A stretch of DNA of 64,000 bases from a virus. Shown piece by piece: positions 3,054 to 63,781 of the stretch. The stretch lies in IMG/VR virus record IMGVR_UViG_3300009156_000027; one strand, 5' to 3'. The notes under the pieces were generated by a model, which saw only the letters and a program-made list of their open reading frames with translations, ran no database searches and was not told the DNA's origin. Made by a program: the position numbers and the translations under genes. The first letter of the stretch is position 1; each line of letters opens with the position of its first letter.

Positions 3054-3518
3054 ATGGCAAACGTTCCTCGTGCAGGACGGCGGCAGATCCTTCTCAAGGG
3101 TCGGCCCAATCAGAGCGAAGAGGGAATCGCCGGAGCCGTGATCCAGCCAGGTATGCTGGTTGACGGCGTCACGACGATCCTCCCTCACGCATCGGCGGGT
3201 GGCGTCGCACCGAAGTGCTTCGCTGCCGAACGCGACGAGATGGGTGCGGGCGTCGACGACTCGTACCAGTACGGTTACGCGCCCAGCGCGAACTACGCGA
3301 TCGGTGATTCGGTCAAGGTGCTCGCATGCGCACCTGGCGATCGTGTGTGCGTTCTCATTCCGTCGGGTCAGAACATCACGTCGAACGATCGACTCGAATC
3401 GAACGGCGACGGTATGATGCGCAAGTTCGCGGCCGGAACGATCCTCGCGCGTTCGCTCGAGACGTACGATGCGCGCAACGTCGTCGGCCCGATCTTGATC
3501 AAAGCGGAGGTGATGTAG
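3054..3518 (+). CDS. Head decoration/cement protein
   Basis: 154 aa small beta-rich protein between scaffold and major capsid gene; good SD (AAGGAG). Confidence 0.65.
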   Translation: MANVPRAGRRQILLKGRPNQSEEGIAGAVIQPGMLVDGVTTILPHASAGGVAPKCFAAERDEMGAGVDDSYQYGYAPSANYAIGDSVKVLACAPGDRVCVLIPSGQNITSNDRLESNGDGMMRKFAAGTILARSLETYDARNVVGPILIKAEVM

Positions 3519-3580
3519 CACCTCGTTCGGTTCAGCATTCACTTTCGGTTTGAGTTTCGTTTCCAAGGAGAAGCAGAGAC

Positions 3581-4612
3581 ATGAGAAAGCATCGCAATGA
3601 AGCGTCCATCTCGAGTGGTCGCGCCCTCATGCGAGGGAGCTCGGGAAAATGGGCGGGTGAGCGGCTTGCAGAAGCGGCACGACTCGGTCTGCCTCTGACC
3701 GCGCAAGTCCTCCGAACCAACAACACCCTGCGAAGGGACGAGTGGATCGAGTTCGACACCGCCGTTCTCGAGGAGTCGGTCATTCAGCTGAACGGCATCG
3801 CGGATCTCATCAACGGAAATCTGACTCGCCCAGTTCCGAACTCGCTCGGCAAGACGCTCTTCAGCTACGAGCGAGAGACGGACATGGACGATGCGCAGAT
3901 TTCCATGGATCCGGTCAGTCGGACCGACTACGATCGCGGGGACTTCGATCTGGCGAGCGTTCCCTTGCCGATCATCCACAAGGATTGGTTCCTGAACCTC
4001 CGTCGTCTCGCGTCCTCGCGCAGCGGCGGCGAACCGCTCGACACCACGACGGCGCGGCTGGCTGGTCGCAAGGTCACGGAGAAGTCTGAACAAGTTCTCT
4101 TCCAGGGTGCGGGCAAGTCGTTCGGTGGGTTTCCCATCTACGGCTACACTACGCACCCCAACCGGACGACCGTATCGTACGGTACCAACGGCAACTGGCT
4201 GAACACCAACACGGCGAAGACGGGCGAGAACATCCTCGCCGACGTTCTCACGATGTTGCTGGCAGCTCAGAACGCCCGCCACTACGGACCGTATTGGTTG
4301 TACGTCTCGAGGGATTCGGCAGTCAAGCTGTCCGGTGACTTCAAGACCAACACCCAGGGAACGATTCGTCAGCGGCTCCTCGAAGTCGAAGGCATCGACG
4401 CCGTCAAGTCCTCGGACAAGATGCCGGCGGCAACAGTGCTCCTCGTTCAGCACACGTCGGACGTCGTCCAGCTTCTCCAGGGCGAGACGTTGCAGAACGT
4501 TCAGTGGGACGTCGAAGGTGGTTTCCACATCAACTTCAAGACGTTCCAGATTCAGGTACCGCTGATCAAGGCGGACATCGCGGGTCGGTCAGGTATCGTT
4601 CACATGTCGTAG
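3581..4612 (+). CDS. Major capsid protein (HK97 fold, Linocin-M18/encapsulin-like)
   Basis: 343 aa; LRRDEWIEFD.AV, PLPIIHKDWFLNLRRL, YGYTTHPNR, HYGPYWLYV patterns; strong codon bias; SD AAGGAG. Confidence 0.88.
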   Translation: MRKHRNEASISSGRALMRGSSGKWAGERLAEAARLGLPLTAQVLRTNNTLRRDEWIEFDTAVLEESVIQLNGIADLINGNLTRPVPNSLGKTLFSYERETDMDDAQISMDPVSRTDYDRGDFDLASVPLPIIHKDWFLNLRRLASSRSGGEPLDTTTARLAGRKVTEKSEQVLFQGAGKSFGGFPIYGYTTHPNRTTVSYGTNGNWLNTNTAKTGENILADVLTMLLAAQNARHYGPYWLYVSRDSAVKLSGDFKTNTQGTIRQRLLEVEGIDAVKSSDKMPAATVLLVQHTSDVVQLLQGETLQNVQWDVEGGFHINFKTFQIQVPLIKADIAGRSGIVHMS

Positions 4613-4664
4613 TCCCCAAACCCGGTAGGGTGACCACCATCACCCCACCATTCGAAAGGCAGTT

Positions 4665-5063
4665 ATGGAAGCCACCACTTCTACGAAACCGTACCGTCTC
4701 AAGCACGGCATGAACCACTTCAACGCCGACACCGGTCGGATGGTCAAAGCTGGTGAGGTCGTCGAGCTTACACCGAACCAGGCGCGAGCGTTCCGGGACA
4801 AGTTCGTTGCTGCGGATCAACCGCTTCCTCCGCCACCGGACGAGGAGGAGAACCTCGACAACAACGAGGACGAGGAAGAAGAAGGATCTGATGAGGGTGA
4901 AGAGGACGACGAAGAAGAGGACGATGGAGACGACGACGATACGAATCTTCAAGGCAACGACAACGAAACCATCGAGCAGATCCGTGAGCGTCGCGCGCGC
5001 GAGAAGCAAGAACGTCTCGAAGAGAAACGACGCAAACGAGAACTGAAGAAAAAGAAGAAGTAG
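4665..5063 (+). CDS. Small head-associated protein with acidic linker and basic C-terminus
   Basis: Follows the capsid gene; N-terminal ~45 aa globular segment, then a D/E tract and K/R-rich end. Confidence 0.6.
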   Translation: MEATTSTKPYRLKHGMNHFNADTGRMVKAGEVVELTPNQARAFRDKFVAADQPLPPPPDEEENLDNNEDEEEEGSDEGEEDDEEEDDGDDDDTNLQGNDNETIEQIRERRAREKQERLEEKRRKRELKKKKK

Positions 5064-5078
5064 ACACGGAGGAGTCGG

Positions 5079-5699
5079 ATGCCTGTTACGATCGTCGAAA
5101 CACCGGGGGCTGTGAATGCGAACAGCTACGAGTCCCTGAATGAGTTCAAGGCGTACCTTGGACTCCGACTCCACGTTCCTGCTTCTGTGTCGGCGTTGTT
5201 GACTTCGGACCCAGACGAGATTCTTCCGAAGTCGCTGATCATGGCCACGAGAGGCCTCGATCAGATCTTCACCAGATTCAGAAAGCTCAACATCGTCGAA
5301 GGGAAGAACGGTATCATCAAGTTCTACGTCACTCGGCCATATTGGACTGGTTCGGTTGCGTCTGCTACACAGGCGTTGGCGTGGCCTCGAATCGGAATGT
5401 TCGATCGGAACGGGAACGCGATTGCCAGTACCGTCATCCCGCAAGAACTCAAGAACGCCGAATCGGAAATGGCGATCCTGGCGATCACAACGGATCTCAC
5501 GGCCGACAACCAAGTCGTCGCCCAAGGTATCACGTCAATCAAAGCGGGACCGGTTGCGCTTACCTTCAAAGACTTTATTCAGAAGCAACTGATTCCGGAT
5601 GCGGTCTCGTTGGCGTTGGTTCCGAGTTGGATCACCGACGAACTCGTTGAACAGATCCCGCAGGCGCAGTTCAGTACTCTCGGATCTCGGAGCTTCTGA
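5079..5699 (+). CDS. Head-tail adaptor (DnaT-like phage family)
   Basis: IVETPGAVNANSY...QALAWPR...IPQELKNA..E.A signature of the DnaT-like head-completion family. Confidence 0.8.
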   Translation: MPVTIVETPGAVNANSYESLNEFKAYLGLRLHVPASVSALLTSDPDEILPKSLIMATRGLDQIFTRFRKLNIVEGKNGIIKFYVTRPYWTGSVASATQALAWPRIGMFDRNGNAIASTVIPQELKNAESEMAILAITTDLTADNQVVAQGITSIKAGPVALTFKDFIQKQLIPDAVSLALVPSWITDELVEQIPQAQFSTLGSRSF

Positions 5700-5700
5700 T

Positions 5701-6105
5701 ATGGGTTTCGGTAGCATCATTCGGAACACGGCGCTCCCACTCACCAAGAGCTTGATTGGTGGGGACGACGGTTTCATGGACAACGTCACGATTGCGGCGT
5801 GGCAGGGAGACAGCGACGACGCGGGTAATGCTTCTTATGGTTCGCCGATGCCCTTTCAAGCGATTGTGGTTCGAAAGCAACAGCTCATTAAGAAGGCCGA
5901 TGGCCAAGAGGCCATGTCTCAGACCTACTTGGCATTTCTTGAAGAACTACCTAGTCATGGTGGTGCTAACGGTCGTCGGGAACCGCTTGATGAGCGTGAC
6001 ATTATTACTCTATCGGACGGGACTACTGGGCCCATCTTGAACATTGAAGGACTGATGGACGAGACCACGGCCGCACCGTTCCTGCTCGAGGTCTATCTTG
6101 GTTAA
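5701..6105 (+). CDS. Head-closure protein
   Basis: ATG immediately after the adaptor stop, in frame with ORF 5599-6105; 134 aa, D.ITL.DG motif; synteny. Confidence 0.6.
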   Translation: MGFGSIIRNTALPLTKSLIGGDDGFMDNVTIAAWQGDSDDAGNASYGSPMPFQAIVVRKQQLIKKADGQEAMSQTYLAFLEELPSHGGANGRREPLDERDIITLSDGTTGPILNIEGLMDETTAAPFLLEVYLG

Positions 6106-6745
6106 TCTCTGCGTGACGGTGCGAAACCGTTACGACATGATTCGGGCCATGTTGCTGTCCGCATTCGAAGGGACGGTGAAACCAGACCACGTCTACATTA
6201 TCGACAACGGCAAGTGCCCGGGACTTCTCATCCCAGAGCTCGAAGGAATTCCAAGTTGGACGATGGTTGACATTAGCGCGGACCCGGAACCGGGACAGTC
6301 ATGTTGGTCGCTCGCGCGATCGCTCAACTGGTTCATGACTCAAGTCCCTGAAGAACGGGTGATCGCACACGATGATTTGACCTTTGCACCGCATAGTATT
6401 GAGAAATTCATCTCCACTCCTGGCGCGTTTCTTCTGGACACGGCGCTTGGAGTGCTAACGTATCGAGACGAGTGTATCCGAGCGGTTGGTCTGAACGACG
6501 AGACGATCTCTCCGGGTTTCTATCGATACGAAGATTGCGATTACCAACATCGATTGGCGCTGGCTGGAATTCGTTGTACGTTGGTTGAGTGCGGCATTCG
6601 TCATACTCCCAATGGAACAATGCGAAAGTATACCGACGAGGAAATGCAAGACTACCTGCATCGACAGCATCAGGCCGCGGTCAACTATCACAACAAGTGG
6701 GGCAAGGGACCGGAACGCGATCCAGAAACTGGACAGTGGTGGTAA
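6098..6745 (+). CDS. Glycosyltransferase, GT-A fold (GT2-like)
   Basis: VYIIDNG, SLARSLN, IAHDD (DxD-like), G..DE......YEDCDY..RL motifs. Confidence 0.75.
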   Translation: MVNLCVTVRNRYDMIRAMLLSAFEGTVKPDHVYIIDNGKCPGLLIPELEGIPSWTMVDISADPEPGQSCWSLARSLNWFMTQVPEERVIAHDDLTFAPHSIEKFISTPGAFLLDTALGVLTYRDECIRAVGLNDETISPGFYRYEDCDYQHRLALAGIRCTLVECGIRHTPNGTMRKYTDEEMQDYLHRQHQAAVNYHNKWGKGPERDPETGQWW

Positions 6746-7437
6746 TGAAGATCGCGCTTGGGTCGATGTTTCGAGATTCTACGGGGTACCTTGATCGGTA
6801 CTTCGGACAAGTGGGACATTTGCGTTCTGTACTTGAGTCCCATGGACATTCATTGAAGTTATTCCTCGCCGAAGGAGATAGCGAAGATCGGACGTGGGAT
6901 CGACTTCAAGTCTATCTTTCAGATGGAGGATGGGATCATGCGCTACTAAAACGTGAGCATGGCAGTAAACATCCATGGCATTGGTCTGACGTACCTGAGC
7001 GTTGGAAAGCGATCTCATGGGTGTGTAATGGAATCATTGAATGCGTTCAGGGGGACCACGCAGTAGACGCATTCATCTACGTCGAATCAGATCTCGGATG
7101 GGATAGCCAGACCATGATCAAGTTGTTGTCTCATCTGGCGGACGTGCCGTCGGTTGCTCCGATGGCGTTCGCTGGAGACAACTTCTATGATCTCTGGGGT
7201 CACATTGGTATGGATGGGAAACACTTCGGTCCGTTTCCTCCATATCATCCGTCTCTCGTCCCAGGACAGTTAACCGAGATCTATTCGGCGGGTTCGTGCA
7301 TCCTCATGAGAGGAGACGTAGTGAGATCCGGTGTTCGTTGGGATTCGATCGACCACTGCAGAGGGTTGGGTCGGTCCATTCGAGAAGCCGGCTATTCCCT
7401 TTGGATTGATCCTGACTCACGGGTGGTGCACTATTGA
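6745..7437 (+). CDS. Glycosyltransferase, GT-A fold
   Basis: TAATG overlap with upstream stop; LAEGDSEDRT, YVESDL (DxD-like), SAGSCILMRG, W.DP...V.H motifs. Confidence 0.7.
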   Translation: MKIALGSMFRDSTGYLDRYFGQVGHLRSVLESHGHSLKLFLAEGDSEDRTWDRLQVYLSDGGWDHALLKREHGSKHPWHWSDVPERWKAISWVCNGIIECVQGDHAVDAFIYVESDLGWDSQTMIKLLSHLADVPSVAPMAFAGDNFYDLWGHIGMDGKHFGPFPPYHPSLVPGQLTEIYSAGSCILMRGDVVRSGVRWDSIDHCRGLGRSIREAGYSLWIDPDSRVVHY

Positions 7438-7751
7438 CTTCGGTTGTCGCGACCAAATGCGCTTCGCTCGACGAACTGTTCGAGGCCGAGAAGCCTGGAT
7501 CGTTCTGCATCAAGGAAGGAGAGAAGTGGTTTTACTGTGAGTGCCCATGTGGATGCGGACATCATATGAATCTGCCGATTCACAGGGCCGAAGAAACCGA
7601 TGGAAGAACTCCGTCGTGGATTTGGAACGGCGATCGTGACAAGCCAACGCTCCAACCGAGTATCCGAGATGTAGGGAGTTGTTTCTATCACGGTCACATT
7701 ACCGAAGGAGTGTGGACATTCGAAGGAGACAGCGGCGTTAACCCAAATTAG
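7434..7751 (+). CDS. DUF6527-like Cys/His metal-binding protein
   Basis: CPCGCG...W.WNG...PTLQPSI....C.YHGHI..G.W pattern. Confidence 0.65.
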   Translation: MTSVVATKCASLDELFEAEKPGSFCIKEGEKWFYCECPCGCGHHMNLPIHRAEETDGRTPSWIWNGDRDKPTLQPSIRDVGSCFYHGHITEGVWTFEGDSGVNPN

Positions 7752-7765
7752 GAGATCTCACCACC

Positions 7766-8668
7766 ATGAGAGCGTACATCGAGTTGCCACCCAACATGTC
7801 CAAGGCGATGGACAGAGTTGTTCGAGCGTTGAAAGTGCACGCACCTCGCCACGTGCAATTCGTGAAGAAAGAAGAAGACGCCGAGTTCGTGTTGATCCAC
7901 GTGATCGGCTACCCAGAGACTGTGGAGACCGTTAAGCGTTGCGTTGATCGTGGCCAGAAATACGGTATCGTCCAATACTGTATGCGTTCGACACAACGTC
8001 CAAACACACGTGATTGGATTGGCATGTGGCAGCACGCCGAAATCGTCTGGTCGTATTACGACCTTAAGGCATTGCTTGAACACGACCATCCGTCGATGTC
8101 ATCAGGAGTTCTCGACGATGGATGGGCGATTAAATTCTACATGTCGCCGCTCGGAGTAGATCCGATCTTCCTGAACACGGAACCGATCTACACGAAGATG
8201 CACACCATGTTGACTTCCGGCTTCGTGGCCGAGTCCGAGGGTGTTGCCGAAGTCTCTGCGGCGGTCAAGCAAATTGGTGGTCGCCACTTCCACCTTGGAC
8301 CAAAAGATGCAGCACCCAATGCAGACCTTTGGGGAATGGGGATCTCCGATCCTCAACTCGCCGATGTCTACGCTAGATGCTGCTGGGTTGCGGGGCTCAG
8401 ACGTTGTGAAGGTTTCGAGATGCCCGCAGCCGAAGGGCTTGTGTGTGGCGCGCGACCCATAATGTTTGACGCCCCGCACTACCGTCGCTGGTTCGAGCCG
8501 TGGGCGCAGTTTGTTCCCGAAGGAACCTTTGACGAAGTGGTCGCCGCGATCGTTGACATTTTCGAAGGCGGATTCAAAGTTCCGACCGACGACGAACGGA
8601 AAGCTGCTGTCGAACGATTCGATTGGAAGCGGATTATTCCACCGTTTTGGGAAGGAGTTGCCGCATGA
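7766..8668 (+). CDS. Glycosyltransferase, GT-B fold (GT4-like)
   Basis: EGFEMPAAEGLVCGARPI (EX7E motif) and terminal RFDW..I. Confidence 0.85.
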   Translation: MRAYIELPPNMSKAMDRVVRALKVHAPRHVQFVKKEEDAEFVLIHVIGYPETVETVKRCVDRGQKYGIVQYCMRSTQRPNTRDWIGMWQHAEIVWSYYDLKALLEHDHPSMSSGVLDDGWAIKFYMSPLGVDPIFLNTEPIYTKMHTMLTSGFVAESEGVAEVSAAVKQIGGRHFHLGPKDAAPNADLWGMGISDPQLADVYARCCWVAGLRRCEGFEMPAAEGLVCGARPIMFDAPHYRRWFEPWAQFVPEGTFDEVVAAIVDIFEGGFKVPTDDERKAAVERFDWKRIIPPFWEGVAA

Positions 8669-9864
8669 GGAAACTCCTTTTCTGCGGTGATGCCGCGTGT
8701 CCGAGTGGGTTCGCCCGTTCGACGCACAAGCTGTGCGACTACTTGGACTATCGAGCGAATCCGGACAACCCGCATCCGTGGGAAGTCCACGTCATGGGTT
8801 TGAACTATCGGGGAGATCCGCATCCATATAAGTACGACATCTGGCCAGCGAAGTTGAAGGATCGAGAGGACCTCTTCGGCCAGATGCTGATCCCGGACCT
8901 CATCCAGAAAATTCGACCGGATGTTGTGGCCGTTCAAAATGACCCGTGGAATTTTTGGCGATACCTCGATGTTCTTCGCAATGTACCGGTTGTTGGTATC
9001 GTTGCGATCGACGGAAAGAATGTCCAAGGTCGCCAGTTGAATGGTCTCCACGCGGCGGTCTTCTGGACCAAATTCGGTGCGGATCAAGCGATGCTCGGTG
9101 GATTCAGTGGACCGTACGCAGTCATTCCACTTGGTGTCGATCTGGATACCTACAAGCCGATGGACAAAGACGAGGCTAGAAAGCTGTTCTTCCAACCGAA
9201 CGATTACGACAGCGGTTTGAAGGACGCGTTCATTGTCTCGAACGTAAATCGCAACCAACCGAGGAAGCGATTCGACTTGTCGATTTCCTACTTCGCTGAA
9301 TGGATTAAGTCTCGGAAGATCACGGACGCGTATCTCCATCTCCATGTCGCACCGACCGGCGATGTGGGATATGACTGTCATCAACTCGCAGTCTACTACG
9401 GGATTGCGAACCGTCTCATCCTCTCAGATTCCGAAGTCTGGAAGGGTGTGACCGAAGAAGTGCTCGCCCGAAACTACAACATCGCCGACCTTGGGATTTC
9501 TACTTCCCAGGGAGAGGGCTTTGGTTTGACGACGGCAGAAATGATGGCGTGCGAGATTCCGAATCAAGTACCTGACAACGCGGCTTTGGGAGAGTGGCCT
9601 GAAGACACCGTAGTCAAGATACCGTGTTCGGAGATCGCCGTCACACTCAATCGCGTCAACATCGTTGGTAGTCTGGCGGATCGGCAGCCGTTCATCGAAG
9701 GTCTAGACCGATTTTATCGAGATTCGGATATGAGAAAGGATTACGGTAAGCGCGGGCGCGCGTTAATTGAACGTCCAAACTTCCGCTGGTCGGATATCGG
9801 TGCGAAGTTCGCCGAAGTTCTTGAAGCGGCGACGGATGTGCTCGGAGTGAAAACGATACGCTGA
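8665..9864 (+). CDS. Glycosyltransferase, GT-B fold (GT4-like)
   Basis: ATGA overlap; GFAR, PLGVD...YKP, VNRNQPRKR, EGFGLTTAEMMAC (EX7E), F.WS.I motifs. Confidence 0.9.
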   Translation: MRKLLFCGDAACPSGFARSTHKLCDYLDYRANPDNPHPWEVHVMGLNYRGDPHPYKYDIWPAKLKDREDLFGQMLIPDLIQKIRPDVVAVQNDPWNFWRYLDVLRNVPVVGIVAIDGKNVQGRQLNGLHAAVFWTKFGADQAMLGGFSGPYAVIPLGVDLDTYKPMDKDEARKLFFQPNDYDSGLKDAFIVSNVNRNQPRKRFDLSISYFAEWIKSRKITDAYLHLHVAPTGDVGYDCHQLAVYYGIANRLILSDSEVWKGVTEEVLARNYNIADLGISTSQGEGFGLTTAEMMACEIPNQVPDNAALGEWPEDTVVKIPCSEIAVTLNRVNIVGSLADRQPFIEGLDRFYRDSDMRKDYGKRGRALIERPNFRWSDIGAKFAEVLEAATDVLGVKTIR

Positions 9865-10256
9865 TGGCTTCTGGTGCGTCGCTCACCGGCAAAGCGGAGA
9901 TGAAGACGAAGTTGGAAAACGTCGTCAAGAATTATCCTCGTAAAGTTGGTGATGCGCTTTATGCGGAAATGAAAATTGAACTGGTCGAAGTGATTCGGAG
10001 AACTCCAATTGAAAGCGGGGATCTTCGAAGCACAGAACATTTGATCGGACCAAGTGTCGACCAGAACAACAAAGTTTCTGTACTGATTGTTGCCGGAGGA
10101 CCGGACGCACCGTATGCCGTTATCGTTCACGAAGATTTGGAAGCGTTCCACAAGATCGGGCAAGCAAAGTACATTGAGTCCGTGATCATGGAGAGTCGCG
10201 CATACATCGGACAGCGGGTGGCGCGTCGGCTTAACATCGCAGACTGGGTGGCGTGA
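9864..10256 (+). CDS. Neck protein, HK97 gp10-like
   Basis: TPIESGDLRST, APYAVIVHE, GQAKYIE motifs. Confidence 0.8.
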   Translation: MASGASLTGKAEMKTKLENVVKNYPRKVGDALYAEMKIELVEVIRRTPIESGDLRSTEHLIGPSVDQNNKVSVLIVAGGPDAPYAVIVHEDLEAFHKIGQAKYIESVIMESRAYIGQRVARRLNIADWVA

Positions 10257-10257
10257 T

Positions 10258-10689
10258 ATGGGATGGTCTGAAGATGTAATGTTTATCTTATCGGGAGACG
10301 GTGTTGGACTCCCGAGAGTGAACATGTTCCGTTCAACGGCCAAGGTACTGCCTACTGGGCCAGGACCGTTTCTCTCTATCATCGAAACAGGAGGTACGAC
10401 ACCAGACAATACGCAAAACTCGGTCATCATCCCTGCGTATCAACGGCCAGGAGCGCAGATTGTTGTCCGAGCAGATAGTTACGTAGTCGCCTACGCAATG
10501 GCGAGAGCAGCGTATAACTCGTTGGTGAAGATCCGCAACGAGTACATCGGATCGGGAATTCTCAGTCCAACGGGAACCTGGTATCGAAAGATACGTCCAC
10601 TTCAGGAACCCAGTGACATTCTCGGTCTTGATGCAGAGGGCCGACCGCGTGTGTCTTTCAACATTCTAGGCGACAAACGACCGTCATAA
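10258..10689 (+). CDS. Tail terminator protein
   Basis: Position between neck and tail tube; P..QIVVRA..Y..A, Q.P..LG.D...RPR.SFN pattern. Confidence 0.75.
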   Translation: MGWSEDVMFILSGDGVGLPRVNMFRSTAKVLPTGPGPFLSIIETGGTTPDNTQNSVIIPAYQRPGAQIVVRADSYVVAYAMARAAYNSLVKIRNEYIGSGILSPTGTWYRKIRPLQEPSDILGLDAEGRPRVSFNILGDKRPS

Positions 10690-10701
10690 GGAGAAACGCA
10701 G

Positions 10702-11130
10702 ATGCCTTCAATCAGTACGGGGTTCGAGAGCAACGGTATTTCGGCACACGGAACGCTGGTCCAAAGGAACGGCGTCGAGATCGCCGAACTGAAAGACATC
10801 ACGCCGCCACCGCTGTCTCGGAAGCCGATCGAGACCTCAACACAGAACTCGTCGGATGACAGCTACGTGGTCGGCATCCGGCGAAAGGGTGAGCTCGGGT
10901 TCATGGTCAACTTCCTTCCCCAGAGTGAAGGAACGCACGACTCGGCGACGGGGTTGATCAAGGCCTGGCACGATGGGTCGAAAGATCGATACAACGTTTT
11001 GTACCCCGACGGATCGGATTGGATGTTCTCGGGCTTCGTGTCGAACATCGCGCCCAAGGCTCCGGTCGATGGCGGACTCGAAGCGCAGATCTCGATTCGG
11101 CCGTCCGGCGGACATATCTTCAATCCGTAG
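10702..11130 (+). CDS. Major tail tube protein
   Basis: 142 aa; IAELKDITPP.LSR..IETST, G.R..GEL.F.VNF, W.FSGFV pattern of lambda-V/TP901-like tubes. Confidence 0.85.
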   Translation: MPSISTGFESNGISAHGTLVQRNGVEIAELKDITPPPLSRKPIETSTQNSSDDSYVVGIRRKGELGFMVNFLPQSEGTHDSATGLIKAWHDGSKDRYNVLYPDGSDWMFSGFVSNIAPKAPVDGGLEAQISIRPSGGHIFNP

Positions 11131-11180
11131 TCGGTAGTCGACAGCGGGTTCGTTAACCACCAAACGAACGGAGCAGAGTA

Positions 11181-11627
11181 ATGGCAGACGCGAAAAAGGA
11201 AGCGGTTGTACTCGACGACAAGGATGCAGACATCTTCGAATCGATGGAAGACATCCTCGGGACCGACGGAACGGAGTATCGTACCGTCAAATCCTGGGGA
11301 GGAAAGATGGCTCGCATCGGGTCGTTGACCGCGGGTCAGCTGATCACGTTTCTCGAGAACAACGAGATCGCCGAGAAGAAGAGACAGAACGGATTGATGC
11401 TGATCGCATTGAGCTTGGTCAACAAGGAAGGCGAACGTCTCGTTGATGTTACCAACCCAGAAGCGGTGCAAGCCGCGATCGAGAAGCTCAAGACGAGAGA
11501 TGCGAACGCGAACGGGCATGTCGTCGAAGCCGTGCTCCTGCTCAACGGATTGAACAAGAAGGATGCGGTGAACATCGCAAAAAACGCCTTAGGCGAAGCT
11601 CCAACTGGCGCTTCGCCCACCGCCTAG
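11181..11627 (+). CDS. Tail assembly chaperone (gpG equivalent)
   Basis: Lies between tail tube and tape measure; contains an in-frame slippery heptamer near its 3' end. Confidence 0.8.
   Translation: MADAKKEAVVLDDKDADIFESMEDILGTDGTEYRTVKSWGGKMARIGSLTAGQLITFLENNEIAEKKRQNGLMLIALSLVNKEGERLVDVTNPEAVQAAIEKLKTRDANANGHVVEAVLLLNGLNKKDAVNIAKNALGEAPTGASPTA
11579..11585 (+). other. Programmed -1 ribosomal frameshift site A AAA AAC
   Basis: X XXY YYZ heptamer in the correct frame (GCA AAA AAC); the -1 frame is open and runs into ORF 11669-12004. Confidence 0.88.
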
Positions 11628-12004
11628 CACTCGAGTTCAAGATCCCTTCGGTACACACGCTACTGAGGATGCTTTCAGCAAAGGAGTTCATTGCGTGGCA
11701 GGCGTTTGACGAGATCGAACCGATCGGTGGGGTGCGTTTAGACTACCTCTTCGCGTCGGTGTGTTCGACACTCGTTAATCTGAGACGGGATATCGAGAAG
11801 CATCCGAAACCGTTTCCGGTTAGCGACTTCCTTCTGAAGTGGGGAGAGAAGAAAGCCGGGCAGCCGGCTGAGCCTCCTCGCAAGACGTGGCAACAATTAA
11901 AGTTGATCGGACAGGTGTTGGCGGCGTCGTACAATATGATGGAAGAAGCGGACAGGGAGAAGAGAGAACGACTTCGTCGGAAGAGGGAGAAGAACCGTGG
12001 CTGA
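11585..12004 (+). CDS. Tail assembly chaperone -1 frame extension (gpT equivalent)
   Basis: -1 frame reads RLRRSSNWRFAHRLALEFKIPSVHTLLRMLSAKEFIAWQAFDEIEPIGGVRLD, a typical gpT-like pattern. Confidence 0.85.
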   Translation, partial: RLRRSSNWRFAHRLALEFKIPSVHTLLRMLSAKEFIAWQAFDEIEPIGGVRLDYLFASVCSTLVNLRRDIEKHPKPFPVSDFLLKWGEKKAGQPAEPPRKTWQQLKLIGQVLAASYNMMEEADREKRERLRRKREKNRG

Positions 12005-62707: not shown

Positions 62708-63781
62708 ATGTTTATCACCTCCGATTATATCCATGAACCACTCTATGTGGTCACGACTGTGTTCAATCCGATTCGCTACAAGAGTCGGTGGAAGCACTAC
62801 GAGCGATTCGCCGCCCATGTCAAAGCGAGTGGCGGAGTGCTCGTAACTGTCGAGGCTGCATTCGGTGAACGTCACCATGCGTTGCAGTCCGGGATGTCTC
62901 AGCATGAGGTACCGGTTCACGGCTTCGCACCGACGAAGGCGACGGAATTCCATAAATCGCGTACTACCGAACCGCATCAGTACATCCGTGTACGTACGGA
63001 TGACGAGTTGTGGTTCAAGGAGAATCTGATCAATATTGGCATCTCGCGACTACCCGAGAATTGGAAGTATGTTGCGTGGGTCGACGCCGACGTCATGTTC
63101 ACCAGACCGAACTGGGTTGGAGAAACGATTCACCAACTTCAGCACTACAAGATGGTGCAGATGTTCTCTGAGTCGCAAGATACCGGACCACGGTACGCAT
63201 CGATCAACCAAGCACGGAGCTTCGCCCACTGCTACATCAAAGGCGTCCCGGTGCCCAAGGGTTTCAACCCTAGTTACTATGGGGTTCAGAAACCACAAGG
63301 ACCGATTCTTTGGCACCCAGGATTTGCGTGGGCGGCGAGACGGGAAGCAATCGACGCGTTGGGTGGGTTGGTCGACTTCGCTATGATGGGTGCGGCGGAC
63401 AACCATATGGCGTATGCGCTCATTGGTCGGGTGCGTGACTCGTTTCATCCCAAAGTGCATCCGCGTTATCGGGAGCGGTTGCTCGAATGGGAGAGTCGAG
63501 CGGAGAAACATATTCGTCGGAACATCGGGTACGTCTCCGGTTTGCTGGTTCACTACTGGCATGGCCGGAAAATCGATCGTCGGTATTGGGATCGGTGGCG
63601 GGTCATCGTTGACAACCACTACAATCCTGATATCGATTTGAAATATGACTGGCAGGGTCTCTTGCAGTTGGTCGATCGCGGTAATCACCGGTCGATCAAA
63701 CTCCGAGACGACGCTCGTCGGTACTTCCGTGCGCGAAACGAGGACAGTATCGAACTCGACGGGACACCCGACGAAACGTAG
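62708..63781 (+). CDS. GT-A-fold glycosyltransferase-like protein
   Basis: W.KENLIN, YVAWVDADV (DxD), HPGFAWA.RRE....GG, G.AD..MA, HYWHG motifs. Confidence 0.7.
   Translation: MFITSDYIHEPLYVVTTVFNPIRYKSRWKHYERFAAHVKASGGVLVTVEAAFGERHHALQSGMSQHEVPVHGFAPTKATEFHKSRTTEPHQYIRVRTDDELWFKENLINIGISRLPENWKYVAWVDADVMFTRPNWVGETIHQLQHYKMVQMFSESQDTGPRYASINQARSFAHCYIKGVPVPKGFNPSYYGVQKPQGPILWHPGFAWAARREAIDALGGLVDFAMMGAADNHMAYALIGRVRDSFHPKVHPRYRERLLEWESRAEKHIRRNIGYVSGLLVHYWHGRKIDRRYWDRWRVIVDNHYNPDIDLKYDWQGLLQLVDRGNHRSIKLRDDARRYFRARNEDSIELDGTPDET

Follow-up and report, generated by a model that had tools for sequence, protein, structure and literature searches.

In the literature that we surveyed, phage-encoded glycosylation of virion proteins has been demonstrated for mycobacteriophages alone; giant algal viruses provide an analogous case. 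According to two papers that summarise Freeman et al. 2023, mycobacteriophages Che8 and Corndog glycosylate their capsid and tube proteins (PMC12363180, PMC11600133). The Corndog genes gp35–38 encode a methyltransferase and three glycosyltransferases (GTs) and lie between the portal and protease genes; the Che8 GTs are gp108–110. Chlorovirus NY-2A, which encodes the GT B736L, glycosylates its own capsid autonomously. Here we analyze IMGVR_UViG_3300009156_000027, an uncultured rhizosphere phage, as a window of 64,000 nucleotides (the whole stretch of DNA that was studied). The window is a tailed-phage genome, and its open reading frames (ORFs) and gene junctions were read directly. Identical sequence occurs in DNA runs from rhizosphere metagenomes, which may be its source; no RNA run is listed for it. 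Between a putative head-closure gene and a gp10-like neck gene, it carries five co-directional genes, gA–gE, whose starts and stops overlap or nearly touch. Four of them encode predicted GTs, and the last, gE, is the conserved anchor of the locus. We propose that this cassette acts late and in the cytoplasm, adding sugars to at least one virion protein of the phage itself while the particle is being assembled or beforehand, a reading to which we give an even chance.

Enzymes of the neck-module cassette

The cassette consists of the following genes.

6098–6745 (+): gA, GT2-like GT-A glycosyltransferase, 215 residues (phrog_29879; motifs; Atlas model)
6745–7437 (+): gB, GT-A-fold glycosyltransferase without a sequence family, 230 residues (AlphaFold2 fold; Foldseek)
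7434–7751 (+): gC, stand-alone BubE/DUF6527 Ser-His peptidase-like protein, 105 residues (PF20137, 3.9e-15)
7766–8668 (+): gD, compact GT-B glycosyltransferase with an EX7E motif, 300 residues (AlphaFold2 model; Foldseek)
8665–9864 (+): gE, GT4 GT-B glycosyltransferase, 399 residues, conserved anchor gene of the locus (PF00534; EX7E; homologues)

The gE protein scores 26.7 bits against PF00534, just above the cut-off of 26.4 (E = 4.7e-6), and matches phrog_2170 at 2e-21. Its EX7E motif reads EGFGLTTAE, with E284 and E292 invariant among 36 sequences. At least 953 homologues were found, many on contigs of 60–68 kb, and most of them match PF00534/PF13692. By a wide margin, the closest solved structure is that of chlorovirus NY-2A B736L (3OY2), with a profile E of 1.5e-26 compared with 8e-6 for the next match. 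Residues 3–379 of gE align to residues 2–394 of the 3OY2 chain with an identity of about 25% and a single-sequence E of 2.9e-11. By sequence, gE can thus be assigned to CAZy GT4 and Pfam Glycos_transf_1 and regarded as a full-length homologue of B736L/A546L.

The second GT-B enzyme, gD, is modeled by AlphaFold2 (AF2) with a predicted local distance difference test score (pLDDT) of 92 as a compact two-domain fold, and Foldseek matches it to SenB, ManT and PimA with template-modeling scores (TM-scores) of about 0.7. A profile match to 7QSG was also found (2e-9), and in the EX7E motif, EGFEMPAAE, both E215 and E223 are invariant. The genes of gD and gE are fused to encode one polypeptide of 690–720 residues in at least eight relatives, and the end of gB abuts the start of gD in 19 relatives. 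The predicted gD–gE complex has a median score of 0.31, where the mark is 0.32 and the controls score 0.00, and is not used as evidence either way.

Regarding the GT-A enzymes, gA scores 15.5 bits against PF00535 (E = 0.017), which is below the cut-off of 23.3 for membership in Pfam Glycos_transf_2. It matches phrog_29879, annotated as 'galactosyl transferase', at 9e-11 and contains the motifs IIDNG, NDD and EDxDY, the latter two of which are invariant across 12 sequences. The Atlas model of gA shows TM-scores of 0.75–0.84 to GT2 clusters, so the protein is GT2-like as judged by predicted structure and motifs alone. The AF2 model of gB (pLDDT 93) has a GT-A fold with an invariant YVESDLxW motif that includes ESD. 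In Foldseek it is closest to COLGALT1, Mnn9 and LH3 (E about 1e-11, TM-score about 0.75), to Anp1 and to giant-virus GTs, and ppGalNAc-T is also among the best matches; apart from the giant-virus GTs, these are enzymes acting on proteins or protein-linked glycans. The sequence profiles of gA and of gB gave no significant match to a solved structure. In the models, both proteins combine a GT-A fold with an acidic DxD-type motif.

All four GTs are acidic, with isoelectric points (pI) of 5.2–5.8. Elsewhere in the window, the 357-residue protein encoded at 62708–63781 (+), which had earlier been labeled a fifth GT, matches nothing in Pfam or NCBIfam and is basic (pI 9.25), unlike the cassette GTs. 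None of the five cassette proteins contains a membrane span or any 19-residue hydrophobic window above 1.6. The hallmarks of Gtr-type O-antigen conversion, namely the membrane flippase, bactoprenol GT and serotype-specific GT (GtrA/GtrB/GtrC), were likewise not found among gA–gE.

The remaining gene, gC, does not appear to belong to the sugar pathway. Its product matches PF20137 with 55.9 bits against a cut-off of 23.6 (E = 3.9e-15), and the long form starting at TTG is supported by homologues of 104–107 residues. The cysteines C37, C39, C41 and C83 (CxCxC plus C83) and the pair S76/H86 are invariant in gC and seven phage homologues. The family PF20137 is now named BubE. In Bub operons this Ser-His peptidase, which carries a C4 zinc finger, cleaves off ubiquitin-like conjugates; the dyad spacing of gC, S-x6-C-x2-H, is that of Citrobacter BubE (S92, C99, H102) (bioRxiv 10.1101/2024.11.21.623953). 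Unlike bacterial BubE, gC stands alone in a phage structural operon, and E1, E2 and ubiquitin-like protein partners are not among its neighbors. Phage homologues of gC lie between the terminase and portal genes or beside the head-closure gene, without GTs, and once near a gD homologue. Because relatives carry it in such varied structural slots without GTs, gC is best read from its sequence as a BubE-type Ser-His peptidase and not as a glycosylation gene; it would be independent cargo at this hot spot. Phage tail proteins are targets of tagging by Bil-type systems, which makes a counter-defence role a reasonable idea, and by analogy gC possibly acts against ubiquitin-like conjugation.

An earlier account of the locus, drawn from the letters alone (the sequence-only reading), had listed two GT-A and two GT-B (EX7E) genes plus a DUF6527-like gene between the closure and neck genes. 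The families, folds and motifs bear out this count. The identity of the DUF6527 gene also stands (PF20137), but its membership of the cassette does not, since it is a BubE-type peptidase gene that moves among structural modules without GTs.

The closure–gp10 site in this phage and its relatives

The cassette is embedded in a run of plus-strand late genes. Upstream are genes for the portal, a protease/scaffold-like protein, a 154-residue protein (p154), the major capsid protein (MCP; 3581–4612), an acidic protein, the adaptor and the closure protein. Downstream, the gp10-like/Neck1, terminator, tube, chaperone and tape-measure genes follow in this order. The nearest landmarks are as follows; the labels 'closure' and 'gp10' rest on weak PHROG matches together with gene position.

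5079–5699 (+): head–tail adaptor (Ad1/DnaT_2-like), upstream landmark (PF20557, 1.2e-19; phrog_477, 4e-26)
5701–6105 (+): putative head-closure protein, 134 residues, 5' border of the insertion site (weak phrog_3881, E = 0.006; position after the adaptor; its homologue abuts gp10 in cassette-less relatives)
9864–10256 (+): gp10-like/Neck1 tail-completion protein, 3' border (phrog_5, 7e-4; the homologue in L002 carries PF04883; position after gE in relatives)
10258–10689 (+): tail terminator (PF12691, 7.7e-6)
10702–11130 (+): tail tube protein (PF16461, 2.7e-9; phrog_158, 1.3e-12)

The gA gene starts with a TTG that overlaps the upstream stop codon; GAGG lies 6 nucleotides upstream, and 11 homologues align with the protein at its N-terminus. 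The internal junctions are TAATG (gA/gB), ATTGA (gB/gC, with the TTG start of gC), a gap of 14 nucleotides (gC/gD) and ATGA (gD/gE). At the 3' border the junction reads TGATG, in which the gE stop codon overlaps the ATG that opens the gp10-like gene (9864). No promoter-like or terminator-like site was found on the plus strand in 3500–11900, and the base composition of the cassette is the same as that of its flanks. The sequence-only reading had described the GTs as tightly coupled within the late operon, and the overlapping junctions and the absence of internal promoter- or terminator-like sites agree with it. From this coupling and from the operon position we infer that the cassette is expressed late, together with the virion genes. 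A blastn search with 5000–11200 against 50,697 phage records gave zero matches.

To place the site among related phages, loci were gathered with a gE profile (the best 80 of 318 IMG/VR matches) and with a capsid profile (the best 80 of 458). A single-sequence gE search of viral contigs found nothing, and the alignment-based profile then recovered the loci. Lineages are defined by 95% capsid identity, and the loci counted are the capsid-anchored ones that reach the tail genes. In 34 of 42 such loci, representing 26 of 30 lineages, gE is present and adjoins neck or tail genes. Among related loci in general, it lies directly before the gp10-like, terminator and tube genes in about 85 cases, and a gp10-like gene was counted after gE in 75 loci; in one subgroup of relatives, it lies between the terminator and tube genes. 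The mean pairwise identity of gE is 0.49–0.51, the same level as for the MCP and the tube protein. On these grounds gE is an old, long-kept gene and not a recent insert. The correlation of gE identity with MCP or tube identity in Mantel tests is weak (r = 0.17–0.22), so strict co-divergence with these proteins is not claimed. As to the tube protein itself, in many relatives, including L024, L031, L036, L173 and L210–L212, the best tube match (66–74% identity) is found either ahead of the capsid gene or next to closure and not after the terminator; it may represent a tube-like gene that has moved or been duplicated.

In the four lineages that lack the cassette, the closure gene runs straight up to gp10 or overlaps it. 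The canonical gene order is therefore interrupted in this phage, as had been claimed earlier. The description of the GTs as 'inserted' holds in the sense that this order is broken; it does not hold in the sense of a recent insertion, since gE is kept in most lineages and is as conserved as the capsid. A Pfam search for relocated GTs between the portal and protease genes of cassette-less relatives found none, just GH108 and Mu F.

The stretch upstream of gE is far less constant, and the distance from closure to gE ranges from 36 bp to 9.8 kb among relatives. The cargo includes GT2-like and GT1-like enzymes, a DegT-type sugar aminotransferase, hexapeptide acyltransferases, class I methyltransferases and radical S-adenosylmethionine (SAM)/B12 enzymes, and these genes split into many small families. 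No multi-spanning membrane protein, whether of the flippase, polymerase or transporter type or any other, was found among 114 cassette ORFs of 24 relatives. Two layouts recur, gA–gE (gA next to gE) and gB–gD–gE, and both are combined in this phage. By its gene content, the region ahead of gE has the character of a glycan-diversity locus and insertion hot spot. At L003:6150–8512, a GH108 lysozyme and a protein with a cytochrome CBB3-like domain lie amid methyltransferase and GT genes at this hot spot.

A clue to the host range comes from two records, L088 (a 4.36-Mb contig) and L089 (5.76 Mb), which are chromosomes of Acidobacteriota metagenome-assembled genomes (MAGs) and contain prophage relatives with genes for the portal, the capsid, gE and gp10. 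This suggests Acidobacteriota among the hosts and a temperate lifestyle for some clade members. The likely hosts are not Actinobacteria.

Candidate acceptors of a proposed glycan

If the cassette glycosylates virion proteins, gE, a retaining-type GT4 related to chlorovirus B736L/A546L, would be the conserved core enzyme. The gD enzyme would work with gE, because both form one polypeptide in several relatives, and gB would travel with gD; gA may serve as an alternative or additional GT-A enzyme. This phage has both layouts and could therefore build a multi-sugar glycan from host nucleotide sugars. Relatives would diversify the glycan by swapping GTs, the sugar aminotransferase, acyltransferases and methyltransferases upstream of gE. 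In this scheme, the protein acceptor, the identity of the sugars and the order of action are parts that we infer. The coupling to head–tail genes, the long retention of gE, the glycan-tailoring cargo, the link to B736L and the precedent of Corndog all fit virion glycosylation. Further points in its favor are that the cassette is, judged from gene content, independent of the DNA-modification module, that the fold of gB comes closest to protein-directed enzymes and giant-virus GTs, and that the four GTs are acidic.

Several points weigh on the other side. The termini and the serine/threonine (Ser/Thr) content of the MCP, p154, tube, gp10, closure and terminator proteins were compared between relatives with and without gE, and no acceptor signature emerged; the termini of the MCP, p154 and tube proteins are alike. 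A window scan of the late proteins found no Ser/Thr-rich tract. In blastp comparisons of gA–gE with Che8 gp108–110 and Corndog gp36–38, there was no match better than E = 0.19. Fold matches of GT-A and GT-B enzymes are poor at discriminating acceptors. B736L itself binds GDP-mannose, the NY-2A capsid glycan lacks mannose, and the true donor and acceptor are not established (PMC9614988). Part of the site cargo lies outside glycan tailoring (GH108 lysozyme, a cytochrome-like protein, a phosphoribosyltransferase and BubE). Finally, full-length gE homologues with 39–41% identity occur as a conserved chromosomal gene in Verrucomicrobiaceae and some Planctomycetes. These cellular proteins retain the invariant residues of the N-terminal, acceptor-side domain, and the ancestral acceptor of the gE family may therefore be a cellular glycoconjugate. 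In loci L091–L128 (e.g. L111:9764–11182) this GT4 forms a conserved trio with a Ser/Thr protein kinase (found in 28 of 35 loci) and a polysaccharide pyruvyl transferase.

A separate observation concerns the protease/scaffold-like protein (1276–2988, +; 570 residues). At about residues 339–386 it contains a Thr-rich linker, KTTTTPTSATTGDTG, the most Ser/Thr-rich stretch of the head proteins. No link between this linker and the GTs was found.

A host glycoconjugate as the acceptor is an unlikely alternative in our estimate. The GTs would act late on a lipid-linked envelope precursor, lipopolysaccharide or extracellular polysaccharide (LPS/EPS) or a cell-wall polymer, either masking receptors on lysing cells and debris or redirecting envelope synthesis. 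GT2 and GT4 are standard families of polysaccharide assembly that act at the cytoplasmic face of the membrane without transmembrane segments, the cellular gE homologues adjoin another GT4 and the pyruvyl transferase while sharing the N-domain invariants, and some relatives are prophages of Acidobacteriota. However, the cassette genes are coupled to head–tail joining genes and do not form an independently expressed moron, late expression would leave little time for export, and the cassettes of the 24 relatives encode no flippase-, polymerase-, ligase- or GtrA/B-like membrane protein. The sequence-only reading had argued against host-surface conversion from the lack of signal and transmembrane segments. 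No transmembrane segment is indeed present in gA–gE, but this is a weak argument alone, because the cytoplasmic GT2 and GT4 enzymes of polysaccharide pathways also have none; the lack of flippase- or polymerase-like proteins in the cassettes of the 24 relatives is the stronger point. Another soluble product, such as a small-molecule glycoside, a free oligosaccharide or a host protein, made at what is a plain late cargo hot spot, appears very improbable. The heterogeneity of the cargo outside glycan tailoring would suit this explanation, and the fold matches of gD include the small-molecule GTs SenB, BshA and MshA. Against it, gE is kept at one position in 26 of the 30 lineages with MCP-like conservation, and the steady enrichment of glycan-tailoring enzymes in the cargo speaks for a single macromolecular glycan that they share.

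DNA is a disfavored acceptor on the gene content of the relatives, and we regard it as decidedly unlikely that the GTs extend a glycan on hypermodified DNA. Such extension would take place after replication and near packaging, on a hydroxymethyl-pyrimidine from the ThyX-like module and beyond the sugar added by the early TAGT-like GT. Both genes, ThyX-like and TAGT-like, are present in the early block of this phage, and a long ThyA-family protein occurs in several relatives that carry gE. On 5-hydroxymethylcytosine (5hmC), phage GT-A and GT-B enzymes make mono- to trisaccharides, with some clusters near structural genes; known DNA-modification pathways, however, usually cluster with base-modifying enzymes (bioRxiv 10.1101/2023.12.21.572611). 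About 25 kb separates the cassette from the ThyX block; the cassette has no base-modifying enzyme, of the C5-methyltransferase (C5-MT)/5mYOX or ThyS type or otherwise, and its GTs are acidic. Presence of the two modules is also uncoupled in relatives. The 100%-complete L177 record keeps the ThyX-like (74% identity) and TAGT-like (50%) genes with no gE anywhere, and the 94%-complete L077 record has gE with no ThyX, ThyA or Tet_JBP match. The former record also upholds the earlier claim that the cassette is separate from the early DNA-directed GT. The Tet_JBP search found no match in any record, controls included, and by itself shows nothing. In records L071, L009 and L023, the ThyA-family ORF is 353–373 residues long with a partial model match and could encode a pyrimidine hydroxymethylase in place of an ordinary thymidylate synthase.

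Virion glycosylation can also be joined with the host clues and with gC into one tentative picture of the clade, which as a whole we consider somewhat doubtful. Soil and freshwater siphoviruses of about 60–68 kb, forming a large and uncultured clade and probably infecting Acidobacteriota or bacteria of the Planctomycetes–Verrucomicrobia–Chlamydiae (PVC) group, would keep a 'virion serotype' locus in the neck module. The B736L-like GT4 would start or anchor a virion-protein glycan, a variable cassette of 0 to about 10 kb would diversify it in an O-antigen-like manner, and the captured BubE would strip ubiquitin-like tags put on virion proteins by host defences of the Bil/Bub type.

If virion glycosylation holds, the trait extends to a large environmental phage clade on hosts of the Gram-negative type, by way of unrelated enzymes and with a built-in diversity locus. 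This would bear on phage–host recognition, on particle stability in soil and on evasion of recognition by hosts or predators. The comparison set offers natural controls, namely the four cassette-less lineages, relatives with gE alone and cassettes of up to 9.8 kb, and the Synechococcus phage S-CBS4 offers a cultured entry point. The stand-alone BubE-like gene is a separate lead on phage counter-defence against ubiquitin-like conjugation.

Comparison with known systems

As in Corndog, several soluble GTs lie within the structural operon, accompanied by a methyltransferase in Corndog, and the proposed outcome here is likewise a virion-protein glycan. The slots differ, being closure–gp10 in this phage, portal–protease in Corndog and the right genome end in Che8, and sequence similarity is undetectable. 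The sequence-only reading had named some actinobacteriophages as a precedent for such GTs among structural genes, which is true of Corndog and not of Che8. No C-terminal acceptor feature is seen here, and the likely hosts lie outside Actinobacteria.

The closest likeness at the level of a single enzyme is to chlorovirus B736L and PBCV-1 A546L (3OY2/3OY7), full-length homologues of gE with the same GT4 GT-B architecture; unlike gE, B736L comes from a eukaryotic giant virus, at about 25% identity. Among cultured phages, the Synechococcus siphovirus S-CBS4 encodes a GT4, a 'galactosyl transferase' and a SAM methyltransferase (gp14–gp16) in its morphogenesis module, between the portal and protease genes. 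Its gp14 is 30% identical to gE over 366 residues and its gp15 is 25% identical to gA, although the slot differs from that in our phage and homologues of gB and gD are absent. No literature on the S-CBS4 glycosyltransferases was found.

Lastly, the locus resembles bacterial O-antigen clusters and flagellin glycosylation islands, in which a conserved flank or core gene stands beside a hypervariable set of GT, aminotransferase, acyltransferase and methyltransferase genes. Unlike these surface-glycan loci, it has no membrane proteins of the Wzx/Wzy/WaaL type and is phage-borne, inside the neck module. In summary, phage-encoded virion glycosylation is already known as a kind; what is new here is the enzyme set, the fixed slot between closure and gp10, the architecture of a conserved anchor with variable cargo and the likely non-actinobacterial hosts.

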